In this document: in pieces, positions 1-64,000 of the stretch
Position numbering within the stretch: position 1 is the first letter of the stretch
Layout of the letters: each line of letters opens with the position of its first letter
Source: a virus
DNA length: 64,000 nucleotides
IMG/VR virus record: IMGVR_UViG_3300035438_001058
Coordinates: 21,209 to 85,208 of that record
Reading direction: 5' to 3' (one strand)
Position numbers and translations under genes: made by a program
The notes under the pieces: generated by a model
The model's input: only the letters and a program-made list of their open reading frames with translations
Told to the model about the DNA's origin: nothing
The model's database searches: none

Positions 1-1100
1 GTGTAAAGATTAATAAATATGGGTTTCATTTTCCCCTCTTTAAATCTTAGAATTCTGCCAGTTTGTTGCGTATTAGTAAGTTTAGTAGATACTCCTGATA
101 AGCATATTGCTCCGTCGACATCTGGCAAGTTAACACCTTCGTTTAAAGCGTCAACTGCTATAAGCAAGTTGAAATCACCGTTCTTAAACGCCTGTAAAAC
201 AATTTCTCTACTCTTTAACTTCATCTTAGAGTGGTAAACTCTACCCCCTACTACAGATCTTAAAGCTTCAGCAAATTTAATACTTTTAGTAAACAGCAAC
301 CACTTTCTATTTGGCTCAAACTTTTCTATTATAGCTTTGGCGACACTAATCTTGGTAAGATTATTGTAAACCACTAATTTTCTTAGTTGCATGGCTCCCC
401 AGTATTGTTTGCAGAGCGTCTTTAGTTCCCTATCGTCAGAATACTGTTCAGCCTTAGCCAGATCAAACACGTTACGATATCTAGAAGATAAATTAGGATC
501 TTCACTTCGCAACCTGTCCAGCTTTATTAGCGACGTATTAAACACGTTGTCAAATGCCTTGTATTTACCTGCCATTGATTTGTCCATCCCCACTTCTAAG
601 TTGTAGATATTGAATTTAGGTAATATACCTTTATCGACAACATCTAATAAACTCTTGGCGTAAACAACTGGCGCTACTATACCTAAAAACTCTACGTACT
701 CTTCTTCGTCTGGTATTGTTGCTGTTAAGCACAACATAGACGTAGCTTTAATACTTTGAAATACTTTTCTGTATTCAGGAGAAAGAGCTCTATGAACTTC
801 ATCTATGATCACGAAATCGTATTCAGCGACATATCTGTAAGCAGATTGAATGCAAAGATAATCAACATTATTGTTATCTCCTAATTCTGCGGCAAATAAT
901 TCCCTAAATTGGTGTATAATGGGGATTCTTGAGGTAATGACTAGTGTCTTAGGAGGGACTCTAAAAGACTTAAAAGCCATTACCGCAAGTCTGGATTTTC
1001 CTACCCCGGTAGGTAGTACAACCGTTCCCCATTTACCAGCCTTATCTCAGGCTGTCAACGCTTCATTTTGAAGTGCTGTTACATTTTCTCTTAGTTTCAT
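1..1100 (-). CDS. Superfamily 2 (DExH) helicase, runs off the left edge; one TGA=Trp at 1047-1049
   Basis: Manual translation from ATG 1100: MKLRENVTALQNEALTA(W)DKAGKWGTVVLPTGVGKS, IIDEVH, LTAT, DALNEGVNLP, QQTGRILR. Missing from the ORF track. Confidence 0.9.
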
Positions 1101-1101
1101 C

Positions 1102-1884
1102 TTAGGTGCATGAGGCACAGTGGCCTCTTTCGTTAAAATATTCGTTTGTGCTGTCCAAGGCTTTTAAGCAGCTGGTACATTTGCCTTCACTTAAGTTGGC
1201 CATACAATTAGAGCAAAATGTGGCGTACTTAGTACTAGGAGTAAATTTTGCGTTACATCCTAAGCACGTGGACAATCCCTTAGCTTCTTTAGTGCAAGAT
1301 TTGCATAGGGTTCTACCTACTGTGGTAGCTTTTCTGCATTTTGGGCAGATTTTAATGTCTTTACTATCTCTGGTGGCAGAAGTGTGGATCTGAATTTCTT
1401 TATAGCAATCTTTACATTGCCCCCTAGAGTTTAAGTGCGAAACATTTTTACAACTAGAACATTGTTCTGTCTTGTTGGTTTTTGGCATAAAGTTTCCGCC
1501 ATAAAAACACTCTGGGCACGCACTAGTGTGCGAGGCATAAACATCACATTCATTCTTACACTTCGAGCATATAAGGGTTGCCTCGCTAGCGCAAGCCCCA
1601 CATAGGGTTTCTCGCACAAGGCGGGAATTGCTGGGTATTAACTCGTTATCTTTTTCAAAACAACGTTGACACGCTCCTGCTATATTAACCCATTTCTGCT
1701 CACCACACTCGTGGCAAACATCTTGGTGAGTTTCGACCCATTCTGCGTGCGTAGGGGCAGTTAGAACGCTAGAAGCAGGGTAACCTTTACACTTTCTACA
1801 AGTGTTCTTACAATTACTGCATACAGCGTTCTCTAAATAGTGAAAGCAAGATGGGTCTAAGCACTGCCTGCTTTCACTCTCTAG
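1102..1884 (-). CDS. Cys-rich multi-CxxC (zinc-ribbon-like) domain, probably reached by -1 frameshift from the upstream gene
   Basis: Frame is open from 1893 to TAA 1102. CxxC motifs begin about 80 codons before the first ATG/GTG/TTG (1617). Confidence 0.7.
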   Translation of the reverse strand, partial: LESESRQCLDPSCFHYLENAVCSNCKNTCRKCKGYPASSVLTAPTHAEWVETHQDVCHECGEQKWVNIAGACQRCFEKDNELIPSNSRLVRETLCGACASEATLICSKCKNECDVYASHTSACPECFYGGNFMPKTNKTEQCSSCKNVSHLNSRGQCKDCYKEIQIHTSATRDSKDIKICPKCRKATTVGRTLCKSCTKEAKGLSTCLGCNAKFTPSTKYATFCSNCMANLSEGKCTSCLKALDSTNEYFNERGHCASCT

Positions 1885-1890: not shown

Positions 1891-2999
1891 GATTTAGAGG
1901 GTAATGTGATGGCATCTTTGGTCCACCCTTGAAGAGTCTCCCTAATTTGCACCTGTAGCTGGGGTTTAGTGATCCCCTTGTGTGTAGCAGGTTTACCAGA
2001 CTCTAAGGTCTTGATACCCATGTTAATCTCCACTATGCCAGCAAAAGCTTTTGTCTTTGCTGCATCATCCATTTTGATGTAGTAAGGAAGAATTTTATCC
2101 ATCCAGACTTGTGGTTTGTCTATCCCTAGAAATTCTAAGGCAGTTGTTATCTGGTCTGTGGCCTTCTTGTTCACCTTTTTCGGATCATTGTCCTTTTTCT
2201 CATCGTCTTTCTTGTCCTCGTCCTTCTTATCTTCTTTCTTATCTTCTTTTTTCTCTTCTTTCTTCTCAGCTGGAACGTCAAACATATCTGTGTTCAATGC
2301 GTGCTGAATTCCCTCTTTTGTTAAGGACAATTTAAGGGCAAGAACGACCTCATAAATTGTCAGAAGCAAGTGAAATGTTGTTATAATGACGCTACTCATC
2401 ATAGCGCTATGAAGATTAGCAAAAGGAGAGAAAGTAGGTGGATACCTATTCTCTGCTATTACAGCCGTCAAGAAGGAAGGATGTAAAAATCCCATCTTCA
2501 CCTTCATCATTACCCAGAAGCATTCTAATTGACCTGTGTTATGCACAGCGTTGGCCATAGCTAACATATTTACTATTGGAGCGCCGACAGCAAAGATGAA
2601 GGATATTAGAATAATTACTAGGATAGTAGAGCCTAAACCCATTCGCACCCCTATTGGTCTTGGTATAACAAATACGGAAACAAACTCGCCAATAGCTTTT
2701 GCTAAGCCAAAAGCACCGACAGTACTGATAGCCGCTGCAATTAGGTGAACTGACATTCGCACCGTTACATTTGTCTTTTCGTCTTGCACTGAACCTAGTA
2801 GTGCTGCTTCTGCTATCAACGCAGATAGTTGTAAACCTATTAGATAGGTAAAGTTGTACTTGATAATTGCTCTAGCTAAAAGAGCTGCAGGTTCTAATCC
2901 CTTTAATTTGGGATCTTTTTGTGCTTGTTTGTACAGGTAATAGGTCAAAAGACCTACGCAAACGAAGAAGGCGACAAATACTATCGTGCTCTCTATCAT
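1881..2999 (-). CDS. Multi-pass membrane protein with K/D/E-rich linker and soluble C-terminal domain
   Basis: Several hydrophobic segments in the first ~225 aa, then EKKEEKKEDKK low-complexity linker. Confidence 0.75.
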   Translation of the reverse strand: MIESTIVFVAFFVCVGLLTYYLYKQAQKDPKLKGLEPAALLARAIIKYNFTYLIGLQLSALIAEAALLGSVQDEKTNVTVRMSVHLIAAAISTVGAFGLAKAIGEFVSVFVIPRPIGVRMGLGSTILVIILISFIFAVGAPIVNMLAMANAVHNTGQLECFWVMMKVKMGFLHPSFLTAVIAENRYPPTFSPFANLHSAMMSSVIITTFHLLLTIYEVVLALKLSLTKEGIQHALNTDMFDVPAEKKEEKKEDKKEDKKDEDKKDDEKKDNDPKKVNKKATDQITTALEFLGIDKPQVWMDKILPYYIKMDDAAKTKAFAGIVEINMGIKTLESGKPATHKGITKPQLQVQIRETLQGWTKDAITLPSKSKN

Positions 3000-4891
3000 T
3001 ATTTATTCCATATTTTAGTTATTACTGCTTTAGCTGGGATATCTAAATGAGTAGTGTATTCTCTAGAAGCATCTAGGCAACACTTCTCTAATATCTTTGC
3101 GACAGTGTGTGAGAATTCGTCGGGGCATTCGAGTATTATTTCATCATGCACGAACAGTACGATTTTAAAAGGTATTTTTTTAGCAAATTTTCTAAGGAGA
3201 ACTCCAGCCCTCTTACCTATATCGGCAGCGGTTCCTTGTACTGGAATATTCTGTGCCCATCTCTGTATTTTTGAATCCCAGTAACTATAGGCGTCTCTAA
3301 TAGCTGGGTGTGGATCAGTGTATGTTAATCTGCACTTCTCCATGTACTTCTTGCACTCTAAATAATCATCAAAGAATGGAACAAATGACTTTCTACCGCT
3401 AACGGGGTTACAAACTACATATCCAAAATTCTTAGCCTCTAATCCTTGGTTGGAAAAGTATGCCTCAAGTTTTGGGAAGCTATCGTAATAACCTCTAATA
3501 AGAGATTTTGCTCTTGTTATAGGAATATCAAATTGTTCCGAAAGTTTTTTAGCTCCTCCGCCGTAAGCTATCAAGAACCCTATGGACTTGGCTATACGAC
3601 GTTCTTCGCTGTCTTTGGTCAAGTTCGGATCATTAAATGCGATCTTAGCAATCTCTAGGTGAAAGTCCGTACCGCTACCGCAAGCTTTGATCATGTTTGG
3701 GTCTCCAGACTTATCCGCTATTATCCTTGCTTCTTGGTTTGAAAAGTCAGCCACTACAAACGAGTGGCCTTCTTCTGCCATGAAAGCAGATCTATAGACG
3801 TCACCTCTTGAAATATTCTGTAAATTAGGATTAGTGGAAGATATCCTACCTGTACGCATTACCTGCATGAAGGAAGAATGTACCCTTCCAGAATAAGGGT
3901 TGATGTGCCTTAAAAATTTGTCCCCATAAGAGACTGCCTTTTTCTTGAGCATCTTGTAATCCAAATAAGTCTTGAGTATGCTAAACTTAGCTTCCTGTTT
4001 GAGAAGCACTAGTCTCCCTACACTCTCCTTTATTTCCCCAGTCTTTTTGTCTAGAGTAAGAACATCTACCCCTATTCCTTTCAGGGCGGTTACAGCTTGT
4101 TTAGGGCTGTCCCAATTTATATCAAATTGGGCAAGTAATTGATCATGCAAACTCTTGGCTTGCTTAGCGACTTCTTGGGCATTACTAAGCCACCTATTCC
4201 CTTCCAGGAATATTCCGTTTAGCTCCATATCTCCCAAAACCTTAATAAACTCAAACTCGAGTTTTAAGGTACGCTTTAAGTCCAACTCTCTCGCCTTCTC
4301 GACTAATTTCTTTTTTAGTAGAGCCGTGGCTTCCACGTCCATCGCTCCATAATATATTTGTTCTAAGGTAAACGGTGCATCCCCTATAGTGGAAAAAGAA
4401 GTCCGTACCTTTTTAGTAACTGTAGGCGCGAATAGATTGCCTTGGCCGCTGTAATAGGCTCTTACATACCTAGCAACGCATTGCTCGAGTGTGAAGTGGC
4501 CTTTAGGCGCATCTTTACCGCATTCAATAATCTGAGCGGCAATCATAGTATCCCAAAGATTCTCTAATCTTATCCCATAATTACTGGCTATAACTTGGTA
4601 GTCATACTTGAGATTATGTCCGAGTATGGGCCTATTCGAATCTTGTATGCTTCTAAGTAGGCCTTTAGGGCAATGTTCTCTAGTGTCGATAACAACTTGT
4701 GTGCCGCCATTCCCAAGTTGGAGCATGATAACCTGACGATCAAACAAATTAGTAAAATCACCAGTAGTCTCCGTATCGAGGCAAATTTCATCTCAGTCTT
4801 TTATTAGGTCCTGAATCTGGTTAAAAGTTATTTGGGAAATATCCCCCTGTTGTATGAGCCATACCCCTGTCGTAGATTGCTGTGTAACCAC
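2999..4891 (-). CDS. polA: Family A DNA polymerase with 3'-5' exonuclease; TGA=Trp at 4793-4795 (GTG 4891 start tentative)
   Basis: ExoI ICLDTETTG lies upstream of the track's TTG and just after the TGA. Also HNLKYD, TGRISSTNPNLQN, ADFSNQE, RRIAKSIGFLIAYG, VQGTAAD, VHDE. Confidence 0.92.
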
Positions 4892-5121: not shown

Positions 5122-5742
5122 TTATATATTTAAGTGAATATGGTCTCCAGAAGCATTGCTATTAAAGAATACATATTTTTCGGTATTCGAGTCGCCGAGA
5201 TATTTCCGAACTCGCGCAGATCCTGGTCTACCTTCTATGTACATTCTAATGTTATGTTCCCGAAGTCATTCAACTCCTTCTTTGGAAACTAAAAATGAGA
5301 TTACATCTTCGTTCCATTCCAAATCCACGGCTCTACCGTGAAAATGTTGCGACTTTTTGTTGTAGCCTCTCTTTAAAGAGTTGACACGCGCAGTTGGCCC
5401 TTTGTAGGATGACAACGCATAAATTAACTCCTTGCTGACACTTGTGTCTACTGGTGTGTACAGCATGAAGCCAAAGAAGTTTCCAGTGACACACTCCCCC
5501 GTTCTTTTAGATTTCCACCTTTTACCTAAGTATGGGTGTGTTTCTTCTAAACGTTTTAACTTCGCATTAGTTGTGTCTTGTTGAGAAAAAAGTTTCTCAA
5601 CTTTCTCCATCAAGCACTTATTCTCACTTTTTAATTCTGTATTGATAGCAAATTGTTTTTGCCAGCCAAATACAGTAATAGTTAAAAGTAAAAACATTGC
5701 TAATGCCATTAAAGGCCTGTACCACTTTTCAGTGTTATTCAT
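5122..5742 (-). CDS. Peptidase M15-like Zn peptidoglycan peptidase with N-terminal TM/signal; TGA=Trp at 5266-5268
   Basis: SQHFHGRAVD motif before the TGA; the HIH third-ligand motif (GDHIHLNI*) appears only after readthrough, ending TAA 5122. Confidence 0.8.
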
Positions 5743-5811: not shown

Positions 5812-6408
5812 TTAAATACTGTCCAGCAGAGCTCTGGGACTCTTAGGCACCATTACTGGCACCGCGTCTTCCCCGTCCCCGCCTTTAAGTAGGGTAGTAG
5901 CCATATTATATATGTCCCCTAATGTTGGTGACACTAAACCCGCTACTCTTTTCTGTCGGTTATGAAAGAACCTTTCATTTACCTCACTATCCGTTGTTGT
6001 ATGTCCAAAACACATTTCACCATCTTTACGATAGACGGACCCGCCTAATACTTCAGCGAAGGTAAGGAATGCCGACATACCAATGCCTAGAATTCCGTTC
6101 TTGCCCTTGCCTTCATCTTGTTTCTTCATATACCAACTCAAAGTCTCTACCCTAAAATACTCCAGCGCCTGATCTTGGGGTGGAATGTTTGGAGGGAGTT
6201 TAGATTCTCTCTTGAAATAAGAGATATTGGCGTTGATACCTCCAGTATCAGGGATCAATAGCACCGATTTAGGGTGATAGTGTTTCTGATCTGGTGAGAT
6301 TGTGACTACTTGCCACTCCCTGTCCAGAAAGTAATTCCGGATTTCAAGTGTTCCACAATCTGCGTATGGCTGCATTATTAACAGCCGTTTCTCAATGTTG
6401 GCGTCCAT
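5812..6408 (-). CDS. Degenerate class I glutamine-amidotransferase/peptidase C26-like protein
   Basis: LLIPDTGG...GILGIGMSA...VLGG resembles LLLxGG...ILGICRG...GG but lacks the catalytic Cys. Confidence 0.4.
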   Translation of the reverse strand: MDANIEKRLLIMQPYADCGTLEIRNYFLDREWQVVTISPDQKHYHPKSVLLIPDTGGINANISYFKRESKLPPNIPPQDQALEYFRVETLSWYMKKQDEGKGKNGILGIGMSAFLTFAEVLGGSVYRKDGEMCFGHTTTDSEVNERFFHNRQKRVAGLVSPTLGDIYNMATTLLKGGDGEDAVPVMVPKSPRALLDSI

Positions 6409-6661
6409 AGTATAAATGTTTTAGGTATTCTAGTATAATACCTTTTACGTGTTTCTGCGTTATTTTTTTGGCTGTACGACTTGCGAAAAAGTTGCTCGCA
6501 ACTAAGTACATGGTTTCAAAGTCGCCTACGGCCCCGTGAATAAATAAATCCTTGGGAATGCTGTTGTAAATGTCCCCAATGGTTTCAAATCCGAGGCTTC
6601 TAGCGAAGAAGCCGTTCTGCCCTTTTACGAGCATCCGACTTGTTTTTTCTGTTATGATCAT
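6392..6661 (-). CDS. Hypothetical protein (TGA stop)
   Basis: Tiles between neighbours. Confidence 0.55.
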   Translation of the reverse strand: MIITEKTSRMLVKGQNGFFARSLGFETIGDIYNSIPKDLFIHGAVGDFETMYLVASNFFASRTAKKITQKHVKGIILEYLKHLYYGRQH

Positions 6662-7040
6662 GCAGCTGGCCTAAAAGGCGTCTTGTGGTTATTTGTAGCG
6701 CTCTTTTATAAGCGGTGTTTCTTTTCCTGGATTTTACCCGCACATTTAGTGTGGGGCCAGTTACAGTGACTGTATATCCAATACGTCGTGCTTCTGCAGG
6801 ATATATTGGGTATATGTCTACCTGCTCACTAACTACGGTATCCAGCTGAAGTAAGTCTTTTTCCAACTGTGTTATTGTAAACGGTCTTCTGTTTACGTAG
6901 ATCGTAGTCGTTTTGTCGAGTCTTTCCAGAAAACTCATCATACGATCGCTTATGCGCATTTTTTGACTGTATTTTACGGGCGAGCGATGGTGGGAATATT
7001 TCCCGTATTTGGTGTACTGTGTGGCCGTTAAAGCTTTCAT
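6600..7040 (-). CDS. Hypothetical basic protein (true start probably near 6941)
   Basis: ORF track; long overlap with upstream ORF suggests a later start. Confidence 0.5.
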   Translation of the reverse strand: MKALTATQYTKYGKYSHHRSPVKYSQKMRISDRMMSFLERLDKTTTIYVNRRPFTITQLEKDLLQLDTVVSEQVDIYPIYPAEARRIGYTVTVTGPTLNVRVKSRKRNTAYKRALQITTRRLLGQLHDHNRKNKSDARKRAERLLR

Positions 7041-7314
7041 CTCTTTCCATAAAATCTTCGAACATTACCTCAGGAGTTCTGGCAATGCCTACTCCGTACA
7101 GGATTCCGATCTCAATTTCTGCCCTTCCTACACAATAACGTTCGTGCAGCGTGTGCATTTGTTCCTGTTTTTGAGAAATTCTTTTCAGTCTTTCTTCTCT
7201 TTTGGAACGCATTCGAGGTTCGCGGATTGTTGGTGCAGGTATGTAAAAATCTTCATCCTTGTGTTTGAAGAAGTTTACTACTCTTACATAGTCGCATTTA
7301 GCTTTAATCCTCAT
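6829..7314 (-). CDS. Hypothetical protein
   Basis: ORF track; start overlaps previous gene end. Confidence 0.55.
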   Translation of the reverse strand: MRIKAKCDYVRVVNFFKHKDEDFYIPAPTIREPRMRSKREERLKRISQKQEQMHTLHERYCVGRAEIEIGILYGVGIARTPEVMFEDFMERDESFNGHTVHQIREIFPPSLARKIQSKNAHKRSYDEFSGKTRQNDYDLRKQKTVYNNTVGKRLTSAGYRS

Positions 7315-7741
7315 CTATAACCAGTTTTTTTCCTGTTACCAGGGGTTGCCGAATTTTACTTGCCTTTACTCCAAACTTACGAGCAAGGCCTAATGCAGTG
7401 TCACCTTTTTTTATTACGTATTCCACAGGTATGGGCGTAGTTTTCTGCATACGTTTTTGCGTAGTTACAGAATAGCTCACAATTGCCCCAGATTCCATTT
7501 TTATGTCCACGTGCACATCACTGGGCCCGGGAGCATTTTCGATCGCGCTCAAGTCAATTACGAGCCTTGTAGGCCCATCCTCGTCGCTTATTTGAACTGT
7601 TGGAGTAGTATCTAGCGCCATTCCTAAGGAATCGGTAGAAACTACGGGGGTTGGCCCGCTATAAACCTCGTCAGAACCGTCACACGATGCTAAAAGATTT
7701 ATGATAATTAATAGGCCTAGAATTATATAATATTGCCTCAA
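7304..7741 (-). CDS. LysM-domain lipoprotein
   Basis: Signal with lipobox LLASC; C-terminal YVIKKGDTALGLARKFGV. Confidence 0.8.
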   Translation of the reverse strand: MRQYYIILGLLIIINLLASCDGSDEVYSGPTPVVSTDSLGMALDTTPTVQISDEDGPTRLVIDLSAIENAPGPSDVHVDIKMESGAIVSYSVTTQKRMQKTTPIPVEYVIKKGDTALGLARKFGVKASKIRQPLVTGKKLVIDED

Positions 7742-8345
7742 AATACTGGGTTTTACTTATTTCCACAGGTTTTCTGTGAGCGGGCATAGTTTTTGCCCAC
7801 AAAGATACTACTTTCGCGTGATTCTTTCGCCAAATGGGCGAAGTATTTTTTAAAAGCTCGCGCTCTTTGGGATGAAATATAGCGAAAGCATCTGTATCCA
7901 TGTAGTCTACGTAGTTGATTGTTTCTAAATACTGTTTTAGTTTCGTTGGTACTAACTTCAGAACTTCAGTATTTGGTACTGAAGTTCTATCAAATGCTGC
8001 GTGCGGGACGGTTAACTCAGGTACACCTTTATTTATAAGCTGGGCGATTGACTGAATTGTCTTTTCTTCTAGCCCAAGTATGTAATACGGTCTGATTAAT
8101 GGTGAGGTGCTAACTAGTTTTAGCACTAAATGCCTTTTCTTATGCAACTCAAAACCATAATCCAACAATGCTGCCTTAGCACTAAAATGCTTAATAAATA
8201 CATTTCCTGTACTACTATCATGCTCTATCGTTATTTTTGTCATAAGTCTTGTCTTTCGTTTCCATCTTACTAGGAGCATCCATAAATAAGGTTGCGGGGT
8301 AAGATATAAGTGACCCATCAGGGAATACCACAACAAAGTAGACAT
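7680..8345 (-). CDS. Hypothetical protein (start probably near 8243; TGA stop)
   Basis: ORF track. Confidence 0.55.
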   Translation of the reverse strand: MSTLLWYSLMGHLYLTPQPYLWMLLVRWKRKTRLMTKITIEHDSSTGNVFIKHFSAKAALLDYGFELHKKRHLVLKLVSTSPLIRPYYILGLEEKTIQSIAQLINKGVPELTVPHAAFDRTSVPNTEVLKLVPTKLKQYLETINYVDYMDTDAFAIFHPKERELLKNTSPIWRKNHAKVVSLWAKTMPAHRKPVEISKTQYFEAILYNSRPINYHKSFSIV

Positions 8346-8847
8346 CCTCTATTTTTTTAAAGAAGACACGTGTGGATATTACTTCCTTATGAAATATACC
8401 TTGATTTGAGTCATATATAGAATGCAAACTACCAGTTGCCACTATTTTCGCACCTTTCATGGAGTCTAAATAGGTTCTGAGCGACTGATAGTCCCACGTT
8501 ATGGAGATGCAAGTCTTTGGGTCGTTGTTGTCTAGAGGAGTCAATGTGTACACTCCATTGTACGCAAAAAATGGATCGTATTTTATACGGCATTTTGTGG
8601 ACGTACGTCTGTGAGTGCACAGATTGTCTTGGCTTAGCCCTGTTATCAGATCTTTATGATCAAAAGGCAAATTTTCTGGGGGCATATACCCCTCATCTCC
8701 CAAGGGAGATATTTTTAGAGGGTAATACCCAAACGGGTAATCGCAATCCATCTTACCAGGATATGCGACTGTTACACGTTTTAATTGAAGAGAATATTTT
8801 GTAAAAATCCCCTCAATATTGATCGGATCGTTTAGCCTGTAATTCAT
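8218..8847 (-). CDS. Hypothetical protein (TGA stop)
   Basis: ORF track; ATG follows a hairpin. Confidence 0.6.
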   Translation of the reverse strand: MNYRLNDPINIEGIFTKYSLQLKRVTVAYPGKMDCDYPFGYYPLKISPLGDEGYMPPENLPFDHKDLITGLSQDNLCTHRRTSTKCRIKYDPFFAYNGVYTLTPLDNNDPKTCISITWDYQSLRTYLDSMKGAKIVATGSLHSIYDSNQGIFHKEVISTRVFFKKIEDVYFVVVFPDGSLISYPATLFMDAPSKMETKDKTYDKNNDRA

Positions 8848-8852
8848 AGTTT

Positions 8853-52489: not shown

Positions 52490-52495
52490 AACATA

Positions 52496-52528: not shown

Positions 52529-52530
52529 TT

Positions 52531-54832: not shown

Positions 54833-57800
54833 TAATTTTGAGAAAGGGTTGAACCAAGATGTCCACCCTAAATATCAATTAGACGGCACTTACAGATTCG
54901 CTTTAAATGCCGTGCTTGAAACTCAAGACGGGGAATTTCCAGGTATTACCAATGAGATTGGTAACATAGGAAGTGCTACCAATTACCCAGAAAACAAAAA
55001 AGTAATAGGCCACGTTCAAGCTGATAATGAAGAGATTATATTGTTTCTTTGAGACTCAATTGCGTACGACGCGCAACTAATGCTTGGAGAAGATCATGAA
55101 ATAGGTATATACAATTCTGCTAAAAATTTATATACTACAGTGGCAATTGGAAGATGTCTGAACTTTTCCGATAGATTTCCAATAAGCGCTTTATTTAAAA
55201 TTAGAAATGGTTGCGAAAGAGTTGTTTATTTTACTGATCATTTTAATAAATATAGAGTTTTTAATTTAACAAACACGCAAGACACAGTTGATCCTGACAC
55301 TAAAAAAATCATAAGTTGCCCTATGCTAGATTTTAGTAGGGACTACAAGATACCTAAAATAGAATTAAGGACTGTACAAAAAGGTGGCCCTATTGATATT
55401 GGGGGCAGCTTAGAAGTAGGAACTTATGCGTTTGCTGTCCGTTATTTAGATAAAGAATTAAACCCAACTGATTGGATTTGGATTACTAAAAACATAGCCA
55501 TAGGTTCAGGAGAATACTGGCAAAATACATTTATAAATTATGAATATATGTATGACGGCGGTTCTAACAACGAATTGTCTCCATACTATGTTCCTAAACA
55601 AAATAAAGTTATACAATTAAGCATAGACTCTACTACCTTAGATTTAGATTTTAAGTATATACAGTTTGCTGTAATAAAAAGAACATCAGATGAAGGGGTT
55701 ATATCTGGAGTAGATATTTTAAATCCAACTCCGATATTTATAGATAACGTTCTTACAATGTCTTTTACATATACTGGATTAGACAGTCAGGTACAAGAAG
55801 CTACTTCTATAGATGAGATCTTTTCAGAAAGACAACGCATTGAAAAAGTTAAAGCTCACGTAAATAATAACCAAAAGTTGTTTTTAGCTAATATTGAAAA
55901 TGCAGCTGTAGATTACTCTGCGTTTCAACGAGCGGCTTCTAAAATAAAAGTCCAATGGACTAAAGAGGGTTATAATTTTAACTCTTTAACATCTACACTA
56001 AACGTAAAAAGCCCAGAGTATTATTATGAAAGTTCTAGTTTCATGGAAAGTGAGGTGTACGCTTTAGGTATAGTTTATATACTTAAGGATGGTTCCAAAA
56101 CTCCTGTGTTTCATATTCCAGGAAGAGCTCCAGACAGTATAACTTCTGGGTACAATCCTTACATATCAGCTACAGGTAATTTTACTGGAACTGCTGCCGA
56201 CGGCAAAGCTTGGGACACTGGTGAAATAACTAGTGAAAGTACTGTTTTAGGAGACTTAATAGGAGACGAAAGATGGCGAAATGTATCTACTGCCACAGCA
56301 ATAACTACAGACTTAAGTTATGGGTTTCTTGGTTATCACGAAAGTAATGAAAATACTTATCCACAAATCTCAACTTGTGACAATCATGTAGATGGATATT
56401 GGGGAAGAGATTGGCAAGGTAATTTAATAACACCACAAACAAAGATAAGGCACCATAGAATGCCTGGTCCTGAGTTTCTTCCTACTACTAATGCTGAAGA
56501 TACCGCTGCTAAATTAGGACTTTGGTTTACCAATGTAGAATATCCTTCTGACGATATTGTTGGGCACATATTTGTACACGGTAGTAGAGAAGTAGAACGT
56601 ACTGTTCAACATAGAGGTATGTTGTTGCCACTTATTTTTGATGATGTAGAAGAGGCATCTTCCCCCACATTCAACACTAATTCATTTATTAGCTGTGTGA
56701 AAGAAGGAGGTGCTTTTACAGTATCCCCCTTCGAAAGGTACTACGCTTTTGTTGCCCCTGAAACTTTAATAGGGGATAAGTTTAAAAGTGCCACACATTT
56801 TAAACTGGATTATATAAATATAGGAAAAGTACCCACAGGTTCACAATCTGTAAATTCTCCTTACGGCAGTACTTGGCAAAATAACTGGCCTTCTTTAGAT
56901 AATAACGATACTCCATATGAAGGAGTTTATGACTTGGACACAGCATTATTTCAAGTAGAGAAAATTGTGTCTACTAAAACACACTTAAATTTTAAAATAT
57001 TAGCTCAAACCTATTTACAAAAATCCTACATAGGGCAGATATACGGGCATACGCAGCAACTAGACAATAAAACTATAGCTAATTTTTCTGTTTCTAATAA
57101 TGCTTATATAATAAAATTAGATAGTATTATAGGAAGAGGTACTGCAGGGTTACTCCCAACTCCAGGGTTAGGTGATTTTACACATATTCCAGTTGTCCTA
57201 GGAGGATGTTTATATTCCCCTATTGACGTATTTAATAATTTAAATGCTATTGAATATGTACAAATAGGAAGTACTGTTTTAGATGCTCCAGTTAATTTGA
57301 CCACTAAATATGAATTATTTGCTGGGGATGTTTTTTTAAGTAAAATGAGAGTAGTAGAAACAGATTGGTATGCTAATAACGAGGGAAAGAATTTGCATAT
57401 AGACTCAACAGCTCTTGCCACTGTTTTTCCAGATTCTGATTATAATTTTCAGTTTAGGCACGGAGGGCCGGATAGAGAAAATTCAATATATAACACATAT
57501 CCTTTAGCCCACGATACTTTTTCCGAATATTTATTTCAAAAAATTCGTAAAGTAGACGAAGCTTTAGAAATGTATTCTGAGAATTATAACTATAATAAAT
57601 CTTTTTCTCAGATAGAGCACATATTTAGATATAGATCCTTACCTTTTAATCATGAGATGTGTAAGATGTGTGAAGAACAGTTTCCTTACAGAATTTATTA
57701 TTCTCTAAGTGATAACCAAGAATCTACAGTAGATAAAAATAGAATTATATTAATTTCAAACTACAAAGATTTAGAAGGATCAAAAGGAAGCATAACAGAT

Positions 57801-59123
57801 CTATTCAACAATTTTAATCAAATTTATGCTACTACTCCTTCTACTATATTTCACATACCTACTAACCCGCAAATCATTAAAACGGAAGGAGTAAATACTT
57901 ACTTAGGAACTGGAGAGACGTTATCAATACCAGCCATGCAGTTAAAAGTAACGGATTATTCTTTTGGAGGCCAAGAAGACTTTAAATCTAGAGTAAATAC
58001 CGAGTACGGCACTTTCTATGTGGATTCTATTACAGGCAGGCCTTTGCTCCTAACTAATCAACTAGAGGATTTATCTTTAAACGGGCTTAGAACTTTTTGG
58101 CAGAATAACGGTAAATTGCAATTTTTAAATCAGTTCTGCGATATTACCGGGAAAGTGTTTCCATATCTATCTACCATATCATTAGCAGGCGTTGGTTATT
58201 CTTCTGTTTACGATCCAAGATACAAAAGAATAATTGTTCATAAAAAAGATTACAAATTACTTCCTGTATGGACTAGTAATTTTGTTTATAATCCAACAGA
58301 AACTGACGTAACGGAATGGTCAGAATTACTACAAAACAATACTGTTTGGTTTAACAGTTTTTCATTTTATTTTTATAGCAACGGTGATTTTATAAAAATG
58401 AGTTTTGAAGATGCACAGTATTTTGAAAATTTATCTTTTACTCTGTCATATTCATTCTTGACAAAAAGTTGGGTATCTTTTCACTCATACCTACCGTACT
58501 ATATGTTTAATGGTAGCAGTGATTTCTTTAGTTTAAAACATTTTGAGAGCGATATATTTAGACATAACTCTACAGAGTTTTTAAATTATTACGGAACGGC
58601 CTACCCGCACATAATAGACTTCATAGCGGATAACAGCCCCTTAGAAGTTAAGACTACTGATTACATAAATTATGTAGGAAAGACAAGTGTATTAGATGCT
58701 GAAAAAAAGCAGTGGGTAGAAGTAAAAGACACTTTTAATAAAGTGGTGTTCTATAATAGCAAACAATCCAGTGGTTATAGAACCTTGAGACCAAAAAGTA
58801 GTGTTTTTGAATTTGATATGTTTGATGACGCTGCATTAGTAACTAAAGTAGAAAACCAGTGGAGAATAAACGATCTATGAGATTTATCAATATCTCAGAC
58901 CGAAAGTGTTTGGGATGAGTCGTGGGCAAGTAAACTGTCAAATCCTTTTTCATATATAGACAAAGTGCCTAACAGTGCTAAGATTAGCGCGACTAAAAGT
59001 TTGTTCGAACAAGCTAGATTTAGAGACAATTATTTAGGAGTTAGATTATATTATTACCCCGCACTTAATTATAAAATCACCACTGATTTGGTGACCTCAA
59101 TGACCACAAATAACAACAGATAA
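54819..59123 (+). CDS. Tail stabilisation/muzzle protein, 1434 aa, TGA=Trp at 55050 and 58878
   Basis: NNFEKGLNQD...YRFALNA start, WVSFHSYLP; ends in TAATG overlap with next gene. Confidence 0.8.
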
Positions 59124-62100
59124 TGAAATATAAAAAAATAAAAAGTAAACCCAAAAGATCCTTCGCAAGTGGTGGGGGAATGGATGCGTTTACATCTTTG
59201 TTAGGGGCAGCCGGTCCAGCTTTAACAGCGGTAAATCCAATTATTGGAGGAGCCGCAACAGCACTTCCTGCTCTCATAAACGCATTTCAACAGATGAAGG
59301 ATCGCAGGGAAACTGTTGTTTCGGGAACTCCAGGGAATTACAGGACTGGAGGAACTATGAACAACTATGCTGTAGGTGGTCCTATTTTGCCTATGCAGAC
59401 TCAGTACGACATTTTGCAAATGAAATTAGATGCTGAAAACGATCCGGCTAAAGTGGCGGGAGCAACACCTATTCCAGGATCTGCGCAATTTACAGGCCCT
59501 AATAAAAGCGGGGCTACTCGTGGAGGACAGTTTGCTGCAACTTTCAATCCTATAAATCCAGTAGATCAAGCTCCAGATACGCCTGCACGAACAGCTCTTT
59601 TAAGATCCTACGAAGAAAAATATAATCAAGACAAACAATTAGCGGGGATGCGTGGGTATCAAACTGCCTATGATACTGAGAAAGCACGTGAAAGCGCTCA
59701 AATGGGGTACGATTTAGGGCAGTTACCTGGTGCTCCAAATAACGAAGTTTACGCTGGTAATAAAAGTGCGCAAGATGCCGCAGCTATGGCTACACTTACT
59801 CCAGGAGTAGATACTGGGATTGTTGGAGCATTGGAGGCTCAAATAAAGAGGATCCAAAAAGAAGTAGCTGAATATGATACTAGCATAGCAGCTAACGAGG
59901 CTAAAATAGCTGAATATGAGGCTAGAAACGCAGCTAAAGTATTGCCAACTGCAACTGCTCCAAGAGGATATGATTCCTCAGGCAGACCTGTTTTATCAGT
60001 GGGCAGTAGGGGGCAGGAAGTCGAAAACTTACAAAAGTTTCTAAAAGAAAAAGGATTCTATCAAGACGGTGCTGTAGATAAAATATACGGTAGGAAAACT
60101 GAGGCAGCTGTAAAAGCTTATCAGGAATCTTTAGCTAACCAAGGTAAGAAGATTACAGTAGACGGTATTATAGGAGATCAAACAAGAGCAGCTTTATCTG
60201 AAACTGCTGGTGATCAAACATGGGCAGCTCCAGGAACTCCGCCTCCAGTTAGGAGATCGGAAAACAGAGGTTCTGATGATGTTACAAAACCAGCTAAAGT
60301 TGTTGAGATAACCCAAATCCCTACCAATAAATCTGGTGAGATAACCCAAATCCCTACCAATAAAACTGCTGCACAAATATTAGCTAGTAAACCTAAAGTA
60401 GGAAATTCTTTTGAGGAGAGATTGAGATGGTACCAACAGTTCACGCCAGAGGAAATAGCGACCATAAAAGCGTCCCCACAAGCAAATTCATTTCTACCAG
60501 CTGAAAGAGCTGCGGGAGAAGAAAGGCTTAGAGTAGCTAAAGCTGCGCCAGGCGGTATGCAAAATGTGTACGATATTGGGCAGAATTTAAAAGAGGATCT
60601 TAGATTATTCCCAAATGCCACTAATAATATCGAAGACTACATAAGTCCACTTATGTGGATAGGGTCTGGTGCGCAAGCTTTAACTAGTTTACCTAAAAAC
60701 ATTAGCGAAGGTAATTATGGTCAGGCTGGAATAAACGCCGCAGAACTTTTTGCTGGAAGAGTTGGAGGTCACTACGGTGCTGAGTTGCTGAGTAAAGTAG
60801 TTGGAAAAACGGGAGCACGAGCAGCTCAAGCAGCTCAAGCACCATTAACAAAAGCAGCTACAGTAGCAGAAAGAAGATCTATAGCATCAGCAGCGAAAGC
60901 CCCAGTAACAGCAGCAGAAAGAAGAGCTAAGATAACAGGCGCCAAAGCGCCAGAAAGAGCGGCAACAACAGCAGCAGAAAGAAGAGCTAAAATAGCAGCA
61001 GAAAGAAGAGCTAAAATAACAACTGAATATGAGGCTAGACAAGCAGCAGCTCAAGCGGAGCAAGGACTTTTAACCTCTCTTAATCCTTCCGAACGCGCAA
61101 TTTTGAAAAAAACGCTAGTGGGCGGTGGTGCGGCTATTGGCGGGGCATTGGCGGTTAAAAAAAACATAAACGACAAAAGAGCAGCTCAAGCAGCGGGTAA
61201 AGCTTATGGCGGGCCTATAGGCGAACCTACATACCCGTCTTTAGCTGGTACATACGGTCCACAATCTTCTGAGAGTTTAAGAATTATGCCAAGACCAGTG
61301 CAAACTCCAGACTTTGGACAAAATGCTAGGAATTATGTTAAATCAACAGAAGCTGAGCGTAACGCTTTAATTCAGTCAGGAGCTAATCAACCTAGATTAA
61401 ATACGTTAACAAATAATGCTTTCGGTACACTTGAGCAGGCAAATTTAGATACAGCTTTAGGTAATTACCCAAGAATTACTAATTACGAAAATGGCGGTCA
61501 AATGGGAGATCAGCAGTTATCTAACTCAGCATTTCAAGTTAAAGGTAACCCACAAACTACTGATGGTAACTATTACCCAGAATATAATGCTAATTTAGAT
61601 CATAACGAAGTTGTTAAGAATCAATTTGTATTTTCTGATAAATTGAAACATCCAGCTACTGGGCAAAGTTTTGCTAAAGAAGCTGCCAGTATAGAGGCCG
61701 CTATAGGAAAGGCTCAGAAGACTTTAAAGTCAAATCCTAATGACAAGGCCGCTAAGAACACTGTTAAACTAAACGAACAACGTTCTAAAGCTTTGGCAGC
61801 AACTCAAGAATCTATGGCTAGTTCTATGGGATTAAGAGCTAAAAATCGTAACTTTGCTCCGGGGGGTTATATGGGAGAAGACGATGTTAAACCTAAATTG
61901 CCTCCATTTAATGTTAATAATCCATACCCGTTTTTAACCGGGATTGGAGGGGTAGATGCTGGTATAACTAACCCAAGTACTATCGGATACGCTAATTCTA
62001 CTATTAGAAACCCAATTACCGGAATGCCGTACTATTCAGGATACACTCCACCTATTACACTGCCTCAACAAACTGCAAGTCCAGTTGTTCAACCCACATT

Positions 62101-62962
62101 TGTACAACCCACAGTCGTGCCAGCAAGAAGAGCAGCTCAAAAAAGAGCAGTTGCAAAAAAAGTAGCTGCTCCTGCAGCTCCTGTAGTTCCTGCCGCTCCT
62201 GTCGTTGGTATTTTTGGGGGAGGTTCTGGTACAGTTGGAACGTCTGGTTCTGGAACCGGATCTTTTGCTATCCCTGCCGCTACAACTACAGGTGGAGGGG
62301 GTATATACGGAGGAGGCTCTGGCGGAGGTGGTGCAGCTAGTGCTACATCCGCTCCAATACAGCTACAAGGTGGTCCAGAAGATCAACTTAGAAATAAATT
62401 TACTGCGGGTGACTATATGCAGGCTGCTAAAGTAGCATCAGGTTTTGGGCAGTTAATAGGTGGGCCAGTAACAGATAAACCTAATTATGATACTACCAGA
62501 ATAACTCAAAATGTTATGGATCCTAGAAACGCTTTGAATCAAAATCAAAGGGCATTTAAGGAGGCATTATCTGGTTATGACTCACCCAGCATAAACGCTA
62601 GAAGAGCGTATCAAAACAGTATGTACGCAAATAAAATGGGACAAGATGCAGGCATAATATCTCAATACCAACAAGGAAATCAGCAAGCTAAAACAAATTA
62701 TGAGCAAGCGACTTCTAATCAGCGTAGATATAATGTAGGGCAAACTCTCGCTACTAATGACATGAACCAGAGAAATAAAGACTCGTACAGACAAGCAGTT
62801 GATTCTGCCTTTACTGGGTTGAGTAACTTTGGTATGGGATTGAATGAAAAACAACAAGGTTACGATGTACTTCAAATACTAAAACAACAATATCCAGAAG
62901 TGTACAAAAAAGTATATGGAGCTGCTGATATTACAACTAAAAAGAAAAAGAAAAAGAACTAA
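59123..62962 (+). CDS. Virion cargo/ejection-type protein with peptidoglycan-binding domain
   Basis: LSVGSRGQEVENLQKFL...DKIYGRKTEAAVKAYQ...VDGIIGDQT; repeated xxGG motifs; VFSDKL. Confidence 0.7.
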   Translation: MKYKKIKSKPKRSFASGGGMDAFTSLLGAAGPALTAVNPIIGGAATALPALINAFQQMKDRRETVVSGTPGNYRTGGTMNNYAVGGPILPMQTQYDILQMKLDAENDPAKVAGATPIPGSAQFTGPNKSGATRGGQFAATFNPINPVDQAPDTPARTALLRSYEEKYNQDKQLAGMRGYQTAYDTEKARESAQMGYDLGQLPGAPNNEVYAGNKSAQDAAAMATLTPGVDTGIVGALEAQIKRIQKEVAEYDTSIAANEAKIAEYEARNAAKVLPTATAPRGYDSSGRPVLSVGSRGQEVENLQKFLKEKGFYQDGAVDKIYGRKTEAAVKAYQESLANQGKKITVDGIIGDQTRAALSETAGDQTWAAPGTPPPVRRSENRGSDDVTKPAKVVEITQIPTNKSGEITQIPTNKTAAQILASKPKVGNSFEERLRWYQQFTPEEIATIKASPQANSFLPAERAAGEERLRVAKAAPGGMQNVYDIGQNLKEDLRLFPNATNNIEDYISPLMWIGSGAQALTSLPKNISEGNYGQAGINAAELFAGRVGGHYGAELLSKVVGKTGARAAQAAQAPLTKAATVAERRSIASAAKAPVTAAERRAKITGAKAPERAATTAAERRAKIAAERRAKITTEYEARQAAAQAEQGLLTSLNPSERAILKKTLVGGGAAIGGALAVKKNINDKRAAQAAGKAYGGPIGEPTYPSLAGTYGPQSSESLRIMPRPVQTPDFGQNARNYVKSTEAERNALIQSGANQPRLNTLTNNAFGTLEQANLDTALGNYPRITNYENGGQMGDQQLSNSAFQVKGNPQTTDGNYYPEYNANLDHNEVVKNQFVFSDKLKHPATGQSFAKEAASIEAAIGKAQKTLKSNPNDKAAKNTVKLNEQRSKALAATQESMASSMGLRAKNRNFAPGGYMGEDDVKPKLPPFNVNNPYPFLTGIGGVDAGITNPSTIGYANSTIRNPITGMPYYSGYTPPITLPQQTASPVVQPTFVQPTVVPARRAAQKRAVAKKVAAPAAPVVPAAPVVGIFGGGSGTVGTSGSGTGSFAIPAATTTGGGGIYGGGSGGGGAASATSAPIQLQGGPEDQLRNKFTAGDYMQAAKVASGFGQLIGGPVTDKPNYDTTRITQNVMDPRNALNQNQRAFKEALSGYDSPSINARRAYQNSMYANKMGQDAGIISQYQQGNQQAKTNYEQATSNQRRYNVGQTLATNDMNQRNKDSYRQAVDSAFTGLSNFGMGLNEKQQGYDVLQILKQQYPEVYKKVYGAADITTKKKKKKN

Positions 62963-64000
62963 TGGCCGGACCAGGAAGATATTACACAGGTGACCCTTAT
63001 AAAGGTTCGCTATACACTCCTCCCGTAGATTTCATTTCCAAAGCCTTAGAAGGTGCCCAACAAACATATGACACCAACTTTTTAACCGCAGAAACTTTAA
63101 AAAATAAATACGTTGAGACTCTAGCCCAAGATAGGGCTAGAGCTAACGAAATACAAAAGAGTTTTGAGGATAAAATAAATACTACGGTATCTCAATATGG
63201 TTTTGATTCCGGGGCTGCTAGCAGAGAACTAGTGAAGTTGAAGGGAGAAATGGAAAAGATTTATGGTGCTGGAGGAGAAGCTGGAGCCATGACTAGTAAC
63301 TTAGCAAATGTTACTGATTCTATAAAAAGGGAGCGAGTACGTTTAGCTAAAGGAGAGATAACTCAAGAACAACTTAATGCTTTAGAAGCATCCTACGCAA
63401 AATGAGGAGGAACTAAAATAGATCCGGCTACAGGAACTTATTCGTCTGCGCCAATAACGGATTTAGCTACTTACGTGGACGCTGGTAAATTATTTGAAGA
63501 GGTTTACAATAAAGTAAAACCTAGAACTACAGAGCGCGCTAATAGAACAGGTAGAAAGATAAACGGAAGTTGGGAATACAAAACAGAAAAAACTACTTAC
63601 ATAGACCAGAATGATCTTTACCAAGGCGTGCAATCTAGTATATTAAACAACAAAGAATACCTTAATTATATAAAACAAAGTGCGTCATTCGCAGGACAAG
63701 ACCCACAAGCAGTTCTAAAAGCAATAGAAGATAATTTTAGAAACTCCATCATACCTTCAAGGGCGGGGGTATTAGAAGATAGCAAAAAAATTACTTACGA
63801 AGCTGATTGGAGAGAGCAAGATGATAGGAGGTTTAGCCACAGTTTAGCGTTGATGAGAGAAAAACACTCTTTAGATAATCCTCCTCCATCTATGCTTACT
63901 TCAGAGTTAAGCTTAGCTAAAGCAGGTAATCAGTATTTTAAACCTGTGCAACCCCAAAGGTTAGGGGCTGATGGAAAACCTGTAAGTGCGTTAAGTGGTT
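62962..64000 (+). CDS. Ejection-type protein, partial; TGA=Trp at 63403
   Basis: Frame stays open from 63406 to the window end. Confidence 0.7.

Follow-up and report, generated by a model that had tools for sequence, protein, structure and literature searches.

Organization of the locus

We analysed a stretch of 64,000 nucleotides (the window) of an 85-kb phage record, IMGVR_UViG_3300035438_001058, with an estimated completeness of 85%. Public runs give lake water as the source habitat of this phage, and no RNA runs with the phage were found among the public runs listed. Judged by its capsid, ring and muzzle families, the phage is a member of the crAss-like group (Crassvirales), with matches to Crass_capsid (223 bits), CrAss_Ring_1 (120 bits), CrAss_Ring_2 (93 bits) and crAss_MUZ (129 bits); its large terminase (TerL) of phrog_6681 is a further trait of this group. 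As listed in Table 1, replication genes and a block of 28 genes lie on the minus strand, and the plus-strand arm carries a pair of promoter-like sites, small genes, a tmRNA gene and a tRNA gene at its head, followed by terminase, head and tail genes. The ring, muzzle and Laminin_G_3 families fall within the tail part of this arm. Beyond the window, the late arm goes on with three giant ORFs (737, 1242 and 1525 aa; genome 19..10528), putative cargo or RNA polymerase-like genes, of which two contain three further TGA codons read as Trp.

Table 1. Features of the window, with the positions of TGA codons read as tryptophan or used as stops
Feature	Position	Strand	TGA codons	Remark
SNF2-type DNA helicase	3..1118 (whole gene genome 21106..22326)	-	Trp: 1049	phrog_16, one stretch 6-366
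Family A DNA polymerase (PolA)	2999..4891	-	Trp: 4795	phrog_17, 6e-97
Weakly M15-peptidase-like gene	5122..5742	-	Trp: 5268	Pfam Peptidase_M15_2 below cut-off
Standard-code block, 28 genes	5812..23694	-	Stop: 6392, 7680, 8218, 10498, 10913, 11374, 14190, 17011, 17252, 18069, 18980, 22420	No internal TGA vs 73 TGG
Promoter-like site pair, Bacteroidota-type (TTG..N..TAnnTTTG)	23971-24001, 24270-24300	+		Regex scan
Six small genes	23988..26486	+	None	All TAA-terminated
Conserved gene	26437..26964	+	Trp: 26575, 26866	Upstream of suppressor tRNA
tmRNA	27270..27552	+		ARAGORN; Rfam RF00023 54.6 bits, cut-off 47; predicted 33-codon tag ending TAA
tRNA(UCA), opal suppressor	27892..27963	+		ARAGORN; Rfam RF00005 52.8 bits
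GroEL-like chaperonin	28736..30337	+		Pfam Cpn60_TCP1, 6e-61; no Trp codons
Large terminase (TerL)	30354..32570	+	Trp: 30405, 31077, 31131, 31419, 32256	phrog_6681, one stretch 48-759 across all five TGAs
Head/neck module, 11 genes	32533..44027	+	None	Portal candidate, Crass_capsid major capsid protein, others
Tail, fibre, ring, muzzle and cargo genes	44027..63999	+	Trp: 44720; 45697, 47515, 48295; 48943, 49156, 49222, 49828; 50604 (putative); 51653, 52028; 53884; 54182; 55050, 58878; 63403	16 in-frame TGA

The family matches in the block comprised an AAA ATPase, a MoxR-like AAA and VWA pair, two glucosaminidase-domain proteins and a protein with a CHU_C type IX secretion signal (36 bits, cut-off 27), next to a weak LysM match below the cut-off; the other block genes had no family match in PHROG or Pfam. 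Because of the type IX secretion signal, and by its crAss-like membership, the phage's sequence points to a standard-code Bacteroidota host.

TGA as a tryptophan codon

An earlier reading of the window from its letters (the sequence-only reading) had claimed 26 in-frame TGA codons in 14 genes, and a recount gave identical numbers. The codon-column comparison drew on three whole relatives and 50 related loci from IMG/VR; TerL identity to the relatives G001, G003 and G004 was 64-68%. Many of the codons had also been said to lie where Trp is expected, and Trp (TGG or TGA) was indeed the majority residue in 15 of the 26 columns. All five TerL columns held Trp in 32-40 of 40-49 loci (40/40 at aa18, 40/49 at aa635), and in the conserved gene upstream of the tRNA, which has no match in Pfam or PHROG, this was 26 of 27 related loci for the 26575 column and 20 of 28 for 26866. 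Seven further TGAs were situated within continuous alignment opposite another residue (Y, R, Q, L or T/S). Three had no homologue, and here the downstream in-frame codon-usage score held at the gene level; two were followed by start-codon-free stretches of 113 and 65 codons, and the stretch after the third, 47515, was only 16 codons. The remaining case, TGA 50604, lies 18 codons ahead of a TAA, and the claim that no plus-arm gene needs TGA as its terminus stands for all genes, with the possible exception of 50379..50606/50663.

TGA was found at Trp positions in the replication module (helicases, a primase, a Sak4-like protein and PolA). The replication genes depend on TGA read-through, as had been proposed. 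The TGA of the SNF2-type helicase corresponds to aa24, a column with TGA in five relatives and TGG in one, and a second TGA at aa397, beyond the start of the window, corresponds to TGG in G003 and G004, where the ORF continues for another 10-17 codons. In PolA, the tblastn homology (aa4-630) spans the TGA at aa33, which is also found as TGA in relatives, and the codon for aa260 is TGG in the phage and TGA in relatives. The last gene with TGA as Trp ahead of the code boundary is the M15-like gene, in which the TGA at aa159 is TGG in four relatives, with homology continuing to aa206.

Contigs from four independent runs of four studies cover 26.4-32.6 kb with its seven TGA codons. Among the changes listed for these contigs, a list outside which 20 weaker differences fall, only a TGA to TGG change at 31133 touches one of the seven: the independent freshwater contig X4, from another study, has TGG at TerL 31131-31133 (31133 A>G).

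TGA as a stop codon

Two readings of TGA in one genome, the central claim of the sequence-only reading, were borne out: TGA ends genes at 5.8-23.7 kb and encodes Trp in replication genes as well as late genes. Over 5771 codons, the block has no internal TGA and 73 TGG, compared to 16 TGA and 51 TGG for the replication genes (Fisher 2.6e-6) and 25 and 113, respectively, for the late arm (1.9e-5). Conversely, TGA is the commonest stop codon of the block (12 TGA, 11 TAA and 5 TAG), and terminates 12 of its 28 genes against 0 of 59 other genes of the genome (p=1.7e-7). Eleven such genes had been counted before; the number becomes 12. The four stop-start overlaps described earlier do read ATGA, GTGA, ATGA and ATGA. 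At homologous C-termini, relatives use TAA or TAG where the phage has TGA (m10498, m14190), and the reverse exchange, with TGA in relatives and TAA in the phage, was found as well (m15224, m13069, m7304). A TAG directly follows 3 of the 12 TGA stops (p=0.005, positional null), and the distance to the back-up stop did not differ between TGA- and TAA/TAG-terminated block genes (p=0.24).

The same two-code split is present in three relatives. The gene order of this 18-kb accessory block, which adjoins the strand-switch region, is shared by G001, G003 and G004, in which at least 10 of the genes have homologues and TGA stops likewise occur; its proteins are fast-evolving (21-57% identity). The composition of the block (GC 0.446, GC3 0.46) differs from that in the rest of the genome (0.36-0.39 and 0.25-0.37, respectively). 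One code boundary falls between 5268 (TGA as Trp) and 6394 (TGA as stop), both on the minus strand, and at the other end of the block, 2.5 kb of genes without TGA come after the strand switch at ~23.8 kb; thus, the code switch does not coincide with the switch in coding strand.

Placement of the recoded codons

In the replication and late genes, TGA makes up 18-24% of the Trp codons, despite A/T-rich third positions (GC3 0.25-0.37), and the distribution over genes is uneven. TerL uses TGA for 5 of its 9 Trp codons, and 16 of 50 related TerL genes contain TGA, whereas the head/neck module has 33 TGG and no TGA codons (Fisher p=6e-4 versus the rest of the late arm). As a consequence, this module reads the same under either code, and so do the six small TAA-ended genes at the plus-arm head, which also lack TGA. 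TGA codons are biased towards gene starts: the first 80 codons hold 10 of 25 TGA versus 6 of 70 TGG codons in late genes (p=9e-4), and 8 of 16 versus 13 of 51 in replication genes (Mann-Whitney p=0.03). A tendency to use A-ending codons close to the start could account for part of this bias. Columns in which three or more of the four genomes keep TGA for Trp were more frequent than under shuffling (p=0.019 and p=0.009, statistics that ignore phylogeny), and the TGA share of conserved Trp columns in relatives was 0.33-0.40 for replication genes versus 0.05-0.10 for late genes.

The suppressor tRNA region

The tRNA(UCA), which has a short variable arm and a G73 discriminator, is the sole tRNA of the 85-kb genome and adjoins the tmRNA gene. 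A tRNA with a UCA anticodon is also present in G001, G003, L001, L006 and L031, and a tmRNA in G001, L006 and L008. Searches for tryptophanyl-tRNA synthetase (TrpRS, PF00579) and release factor 1 (RF1, PF00472) gave no match in the 85-kb record, under conditions in which the positive controls were detected, and no SmpB gene is present in the record, estimated to be 85% complete. The two promoter-like sites at the head of the plus arm are nearly identical; the window contains 9 such sites versus 6 expected from shuffles, so that only the position and near-identity of the pair stand out. Of note, gene 26437..26964 needs tRNA(UCA) yet is located upstream of the tRNA gene, a counterpoint to a tRNA-gated order.

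A proposed model with two translational states

We consider it probable, at roughly 0.6, that this crAss-like phage infects freshwater Bacteroidota and combines block-wise stop-codon recoding with two translational states in the cell. In the first state, host RF2 would terminate at UGA, so that the block would be made correctly and TGA-bearing genes would abort, mostly within the first 80 codons. The tRNA(UCA), probably charged with Trp and perhaps transcribed from the host-type promoters at the plus-arm head, would then accumulate until UGA is read through and replication, packaging and tail proteins are produced. Genes free of TGA, as in the head module and at the start of the plus arm (its first six genes), would be indifferent to the translational state, and the neighbouring tmRNA may release ribosomes that run past the UGA ends of host and block mRNAs. 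Suppression is probably incomplete, since TGA accounts for such a small share of the Trp codons despite the A/T-rich third positions.

The sequence-only reading proposed a temporal switch, which may be at work here, with early expression of the block and later expression of the replication genes. Among crAss-like phages, a transcription time course exists only for phi14:2 of Cellulophaga, in which the whole replication arm belongs to the early class and is transcribed by the virion RNA polymerase (bioRxiv 10.1101/2020.03.07.982082). This phage likewise has two divergent arms, with replication opposite capsid and expression genes, and its late arm ends in giant virion RNA polymerase-like ORFs, for which ours are candidate counterparts. 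However, it uses the standard code, and its early replication arm does not fit a simple order with early standard-code genes and later replication; taken overall, the analogy is not decisive either way. If the phi14:2 pattern is valid here, the block and the replication genes would fall into one temporal class, and any delay would rest only on the distance from the switch region. Also, the two glucosaminidase-domain block genes could, by their domains, have lysis functions and hence not be early.

A more specific version of the model, which we offer tentatively and regard as rather unlikely, is that TGA is a lock placed at mostly N-terminal Trp columns, with the tmRNA as its second half, and that mainly replication and not lysis is gated. 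Such a lock would apply to replication, terminase and tail-ring genes across genomes with ~50-65% protein identity. Each locked protein would need the phage tRNA(UCA), and failure would be cheap. The tmRNA would recycle ribosomes that pass the UGA ends of host and accessory-block messages.

Instead of a switch, the tRNA might compete with RF2 throughout infection, giving constant partial suppression in which TGA is a fixed dosage attenuator. This fits the multiple TGAs in low-copy or catalytic proteins (terminase, primase, fibres) and their absence from the abundant head proteins, as seen in the contrast between TerL and the head module, as well as the modest TGA share at low GC3. The tandem back-up stops after some block TGAs also agree with it, and the block would tolerate short read-through tails. 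Yet it leaves unexplained why TGA terminators are confined to the block and why none of the 73 block Trp codons is TGA, and five TerL TGAs at modest read-through would yield very little full-length enzyme, hence we judge constant suppression to be improbable.

It is still less likely that the block is horizontally acquired standard-code cargo with TGA stops that are historical and have no regulatory meaning. The deviating GC and GC3 of the block, the lack of PHROG or Pfam families for most of its genes, and the faster divergence of its proteins compared to replication proteins would all suit such an origin. However, because the relatives share the block order, TGA stops included, the arrangement must be older than their divergence and has been maintained, and with an ever-present suppressor, TGG to TGA changes should have built up in the block, where none are seen.

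That the whole genome uses code 4, by a code-4 host or by constitutive full suppression, with the block stops being Trp codons followed by short extensions, seems very unlikely. In its favour, this code would add no more than 1-41 codons to the block ORFs, except for one that would gain 99. Against it are the 12 TGA terminators, the exchange of TAA or TAG with TGA at homologous C-termini, the absence of internal TGA from the block codons, and the type IX secretion signal, which points to Bacteroidota, users of the standard code. Moreover, no alignment spans a block TGA, save one in G004, which at first extended 12 residues beyond the 10498 TGA and on re-alignment ended before it.

Finally, no support was found for the in-frame TGAs being assembly errors or signs of decaying pseudogenes, and with the recurrence of those at 26.4-32.6 kb in contigs of four independent studies, TGA columns shared by divergent relatives, and coding potential intact after each TGA, we consider the chance of such an artefact negligible.

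Relation to known recoded phages

The claim that partial reassignment occurs in crAss-like phages agrees with the literature, where recoding of TGA or TAG by blocks has been reported (Yutin 2021, Borges 2021, Mgcod). TGA-to-Trp and TAG-to-Gln recoding by blocks was described by Yutin et al. 2021 (PMC7886860) and is also treated with Mgcod (Pfennig et al., bioRxiv 10.1101/2022.06.29.495998), and the first sighting is, as cited there, that of Ivanova et al. 2014. The published phages likewise have one part with TGA as Trp, one part readable in the standard code and a phage suppressor tRNA, and their code state likewise shifts between close relatives. The block also resembles the 'dual-coded' genes of Mgcod in that its proteins are little altered under the other code. 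In contrast to the Mgcod rule of a code switch at the strand switch, one boundary here lies inside a co-directional gene arm. Furthermore, the phages in those publications come from the gut, with recoding 'mostly in late genes'. This phage comes from lakes, and its replication module is recoded; in its relatives, no other part is recoded as strongly as this module.

Borges et al. (bioRxiv 10.1101/2021.08.26.457843) proposed stop-codon recoding as a regulator of the lytic cycle, and reported that clades differ in the recoding of their replication genes and that the 'code change module' of Jade phage consists of a suppressor tRNA, TrpRS and RF1. Their systems share with ours a suppressor tRNA ahead of recoded late genes, and recoded structural genes, and a standard-code host is probable in our case as well. 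Unlike the Jade module, our phage has neither TrpRS nor RF1, and a tmRNA beside the tRNA instead. A further difference is that its capsid module is TGA-free and that its two lysin-like glucosaminidase-domain genes are in the standard-code block, and for this latter reason lysis is not obviously the gated step.

The phage is thus a well-supported new example of known block-wise crAss-like recoding and not new in kind; added here are the TGA-free head module, the 5'-biased TGA codons and the column-wise retention of TGA across relatives. Both meanings of one codon are evidenced by the same relatives in one small genome, and block-wise TGA recoding in crAss-like phages is extended from animal guts to lake water. 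The code boundary need not track the strand switch, a point of concern for annotation tools built on that assumption. If this clade is annotated in the standard code, its terminase, tail and replication genes (polymerase, helicases and primase) come out truncated. Recoding can fall mainly on replication genes, and if the 5' placement and column retention hold, they would be evidence for recoding as a gate and not mere tolerance.

TGA aligns with tryptophan in the replication and late genes

The sequence-only reading had proposed that TGA is a stop codon in the early genes of this phage and a Trp codon in its replication and late genes. Its count, 26 TGA codons in frame across 14 genes of the window, was reproduced exactly, and gene calling under both tables showed that many conserved genes broken in table 11 are whole in table 4. 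For every TGA, the aligned codon was read in each relative, using 49 TerL-bearing and four PolA-bearing loci from IMG/VR, and three whole related genomes (G001, 90.6 kb; G003, 99.9 kb; G004, 89.4 kb). As proposed, Trp was found opposite at many columns, encoded by either TGG or TGA. The five TGAs of TerL face Trp in 40/40, 34/44, 38/44, 32/46 and 40/49 loci, as a mix of both codons. Homology of PolA runs from aa4 on and passes through the TGA at aa33, and its aa260 is TGG here and TGA in relatives. Trp also stands opposite the TGAs at helicase aa24, aa159 of the M15-like gene and aa22 of the ring protein, opposite both TGAs of gene 26437..26964, and at one TGA column each in the LamG-like gene and the 51107 gene. 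The TGA at 44720 lies within the widely conserved fibre motif NRGLLTSADWTTFNNK (…SADWTTFNNK), where 9/10 homologues carry W, bearing out the Trp assigned to it from the motif.

Seven TGAs are spanned by continuous alignment, yet the residue opposite is not Trp. For three TGAs without a homologue, the in-frame codon-usage score downstream holds at gene level; the start-free stretch is 113 and 65 codons after two of them, and only 16 after 47515. The TGA at 50604 is the sole one in the window without support for read-through. An IMG/VR search for relatives of the 1083-aa fibre gave only one short match, so the evidence for two of its three TGAs is coding potential only.

Independent contigs from four other runs, belonging to four different studies, span 26.4-32.6 kb. 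In one of these (X4, a 2024 freshwater sample), an A>G change at 31133 turns TerL codon 260 from TGA into TGG, the only TGA-codon change among the differences listed over this interval, 20 weaker ones being outside the list. The differences near 31133 in X4 are ordinary third-position changes. Beyond the window, TGA and TGG exchange in the same way in two of the three giant ORFs, in three proteins that match no family, and in the genes for the primase, a DnaB-like helicase and a Sak4-like protein.

Two alternative gene models were discarded. The helicase does not end at its second TGA, in an ATGA overlap, since G003 and G004 have TGG at this position and continue the ORF past it, and 44027..45628 is not two genes split at 44720, because this TGA lies inside the conserved motif and a 536-aa homologue runs through it. 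The TerL matches of loci L032-L036 measure 2748-3291 nt versus ~2215 nt elsewhere; the extra 0.5-1 kb in the matched region resembles an intein or intron insertion. Directly upstream of TerL lies a GroEL-like chaperonin gene (Cpn60_TCP1, 6e-61; 533 aa) with zero Trp codons.

TGA terminates genes in a minus-strand block

Across the 5771 codons of the 28 block genes there is no internal TGA, versus 73 TGG, and 12 of these genes terminate at TGA, compared to 0/59 genes outside the block (Fisher p=1.7e-7). Thus, each part of the genome avoids the TGA use of the other. The four stop-start overlaps that had been noticed at block TGA ends were confirmed (ATGA, GTGA, ATGA, ATGA). Relatives hold a collinear version of the block, and, judged by alignment, their gene ends settle TGA as a stop here: the C-terminus …ILKSM, followed by TGA, corresponds to …YTKNL and TAG in G003, and …SRPRL, followed by TGA and TAG, to …GTPKL and TAA in G001, while a glucosaminidase gene that closes with …HKYD and TAA in this phage has TGA as its stop in each of the three relatives. 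No alignment with relatives crosses a block TGA, bar one first-pass G004 alignment that overran the TGA at 10498 by 12 residues and halted before it on re-alignment.

Back-up stops after block TGAs were rejected as a selected feature, being significant against a positional null only and not against neighbouring TAA/TAG-terminated genes. Two ORFs at 22123-22770 share a frame, so read-through would fuse them. A fused gene of this kind is unlikely, for the TGA is followed by 21 nt of which 19 are A/T, and then by ATG; the simplest reading is two genes. No homologues of this pair were found.

G+C content is 0.446 in the block (GC3 0.46), 0.394 in the replication genes (GC3 0.37) and 0.364 in the late arm (GC3 0.25), and between relatives the block proteins diverge faster. 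The block genes that can be recognised encode an AAA ATPase and two proteins with glucosaminidase domains, and there is a LysM match that is weak and below cut-off. A MoxR-like AAA+ ATPase and a VWA-domain protein form a GTGA-coupled pair, kept in G001, G003 and G004, and another protein carries a CHU_C signal for type IX secretion (36 bits, cut-off 27). The latter signal points to a Bacteroidota host, and would mean that a phage protein is exported via the host T9SS.

Four gene classes and a code boundary within one arm

By their TGA use, the genes fall into four classes, not two, and one code boundary lies inside the co-directional minus arm, away from the strand switch (see table). Automatic mapping of the code by bin in the relatives gave too much noise to be of use, and the comparisons rest on alignments, gene ends and Trp columns. 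A sigma-70 promoter scan over 4.9-24.8 kb gave no excess (33 sites versus 35 in shuffles). Terminator-like hairpins numbered 45 versus 18 in shuffles, but they fall at positions that give no sign of the code boundary. Three minus-arm intergenic gaps contain strong hairpins rich in G+C (8-12 bp), and the plus arm begins with two near-identical Bacteroidota-type promoter-like sites (TTG…TAnnTTTG) in the divergent region.

Coordinates of the gene classes, RNA genes and local features
Feature	Position (strand)	Remark
Class 1, TGA=stop block	5812-23694 (-)	
Class 2, six small plus-arm genes	23988-26486 (+)	TGA-free
Class 3, head/neck module	32533-44027	TGG 33, TGA 0 (p=6e-4)
Class 4, TGA-dependent		Replication module, 26437..26964, TerL, tail, fibre and cargo genes
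Code boundary	5268-6394	
VWA-domain protein	13069..14193 (-)	Pair spans 13069-15185
MoxR-like AAA+ ATPase	14190..15185 (-)	
CHU_C-signal protein	18980-19666 (-)	
ORFs sharing a frame	22420..22770, 22123..22398 (-)	
G+C-rich hairpins	5087-5109, 8853-8883, 12025-12048	First just downstream of M15-like gene
Promoter-like sites	23971-24001, 24270-24300 (+)	
Interval after promoter-like pair	24300-24745	~400 nt, no long ORF
tmRNA	27270-27552 (+)	Above Rfam cut-off
tRNA(UCA)	27892-27963	Starts 340 nt after tmRNA
GroEL-like chaperonin	28736-30337 (+)	
tRNA(UCA) in relatives, short arm, G73	L001 3330-3401; G003 96383-96455 (-)	Like this phage
tRNA(UCA) in relatives, long arm	G001 7643-7736 (-); L006 5513-5610; L031 3368-3467	94-100 nt, class II-like
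tmRNA in relatives	G001 8562-8808 (-); L006 5128-5389; L008 3729-3990	

The window covers bases 21209-85208 of a single contig of 85,208 bp, classed as linear and ~85% complete, whose genes form two divergent arms. One, the minus arm, extends leftwards from ~23.7 kb as far as genome position 11,038; the other, the plus arm, starts at 24.0 kb, reaches the end of the window and resumes with three giant ORFs at the start of the genome. The phage is identified as crAss-like by four Pfam families (Crass_capsid, 223 bits; CrAss_Ring_1; CrAss_Ring_2; crAss_MUZ), and its TerL is of the crAss type (phrog_6681, 3e-103). Metagenomes of 13 studies hold the stretch, from lake, freshwater and crustacean-associated samples, with no RNA run listed among the public runs. 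Megablast of 20 kb of the phage found nothing among 50,697 phage records of GenBank, hence there is no annotated close relative there to compare.

A UCA tRNA beside a tmRNA

The genome encodes a single tRNA, with the anticodon UCA, G73 and a variable arm of the short type. No match to it was obtained by blastn in phage records or E. coli genomes, so its amino-acid identity is judged from G73 and the Trp columns only. RF-1 (RF1), SmpB and class Ib synthetases including TrpRS had no family match in the 85-kb genome, ~85% complete. Relatives carry UCA tRNAs of two architectures (the G003 one was found by Rfam and missed by ARAGORN), which suggests independent suppressor origins, or another charged amino acid in some relatives. 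The tmRNA also recurs in relatives; its predicted tag is long, at 30-33 aa, begins with DN in all three cases predicted (this phage, G001 and L008) and ends with YA. A link between tmRNA and phage recoding was not found in the literature, and Borges et al. (10.1101/2021.08.26.457843) do not mention tmRNA.

Temporal switching, attenuation or drift

Judging by codon distribution, the reciprocal avoidance of TGA argues for translation of the two gene sets under different conditions. The simplest reading would be a temporal order, in which standard decoding comes first and UGA suppression follows once tRNA(UCA) has accumulated. Three points call for caution: the block includes lysin-like genes; in the Cellulophaga crAss-like phage phi14:2 the replication arm is wholly early and is transcribed by a virion RNA polymerase (10.1101/2020.03.07.982082); and only 18-24% of Trp codons are TGA, so suppression probably carries a cost or is incomplete. 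Constant attenuation by TGA, with no switch in time, would account for the TGA-free head module, but leaves the stop-codon asymmetry between the block and the rest unexplained, and we consider it unlikely, though not negligibly so.

The position of the codons also bears on the matter. Within the first 80 codons of late genes lie 10/25 TGA versus 6/70 TGG (p=9e-4), and replication genes show the same 5' trend; these early TGAs stand at true coding positions where Trp is conserved. Retention of TGA at the same Trp column in at least three of four genomes exceeds shuffling (p=0.019 for replication, p=0.009 for late genes, by a statistic that ignores shared ancestry). At Trp columns common to the four genomes, the TGA share in the three relatives is 0.33-0.40 in replication and 0.05-0.10 in late genes, and in this phage 0.17 and 0.22, respectively. 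This 5' concentration and column retention agree better with a gate than with neutral drift.

Relation to published recoding

Recoding of this kind is already covered by Yutin et al. (PMC7886860). The Mgcod study describes code blocks with 'dual-coded' early blocks, only 17 complete code 11+4 genomes, and a code switch tied to strand switch (10.1101/2022.06.29.495998), and Borges et al. propose temporal regulation by recoding and report that replication-gene recoding differs between clades (10.1101/2021.08.26.457843). Since these three papers cover the kind, this phage adds an example and not a new kind. In contrast to the Mgcod rule, one of its code boundaries falls within a single arm and not at the strand switch. 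What is unusual in this phage is this boundary, the lake habitat and the tmRNA beside the tRNA, and what is unusual in its clade is that the replication genes are the main recoded set.
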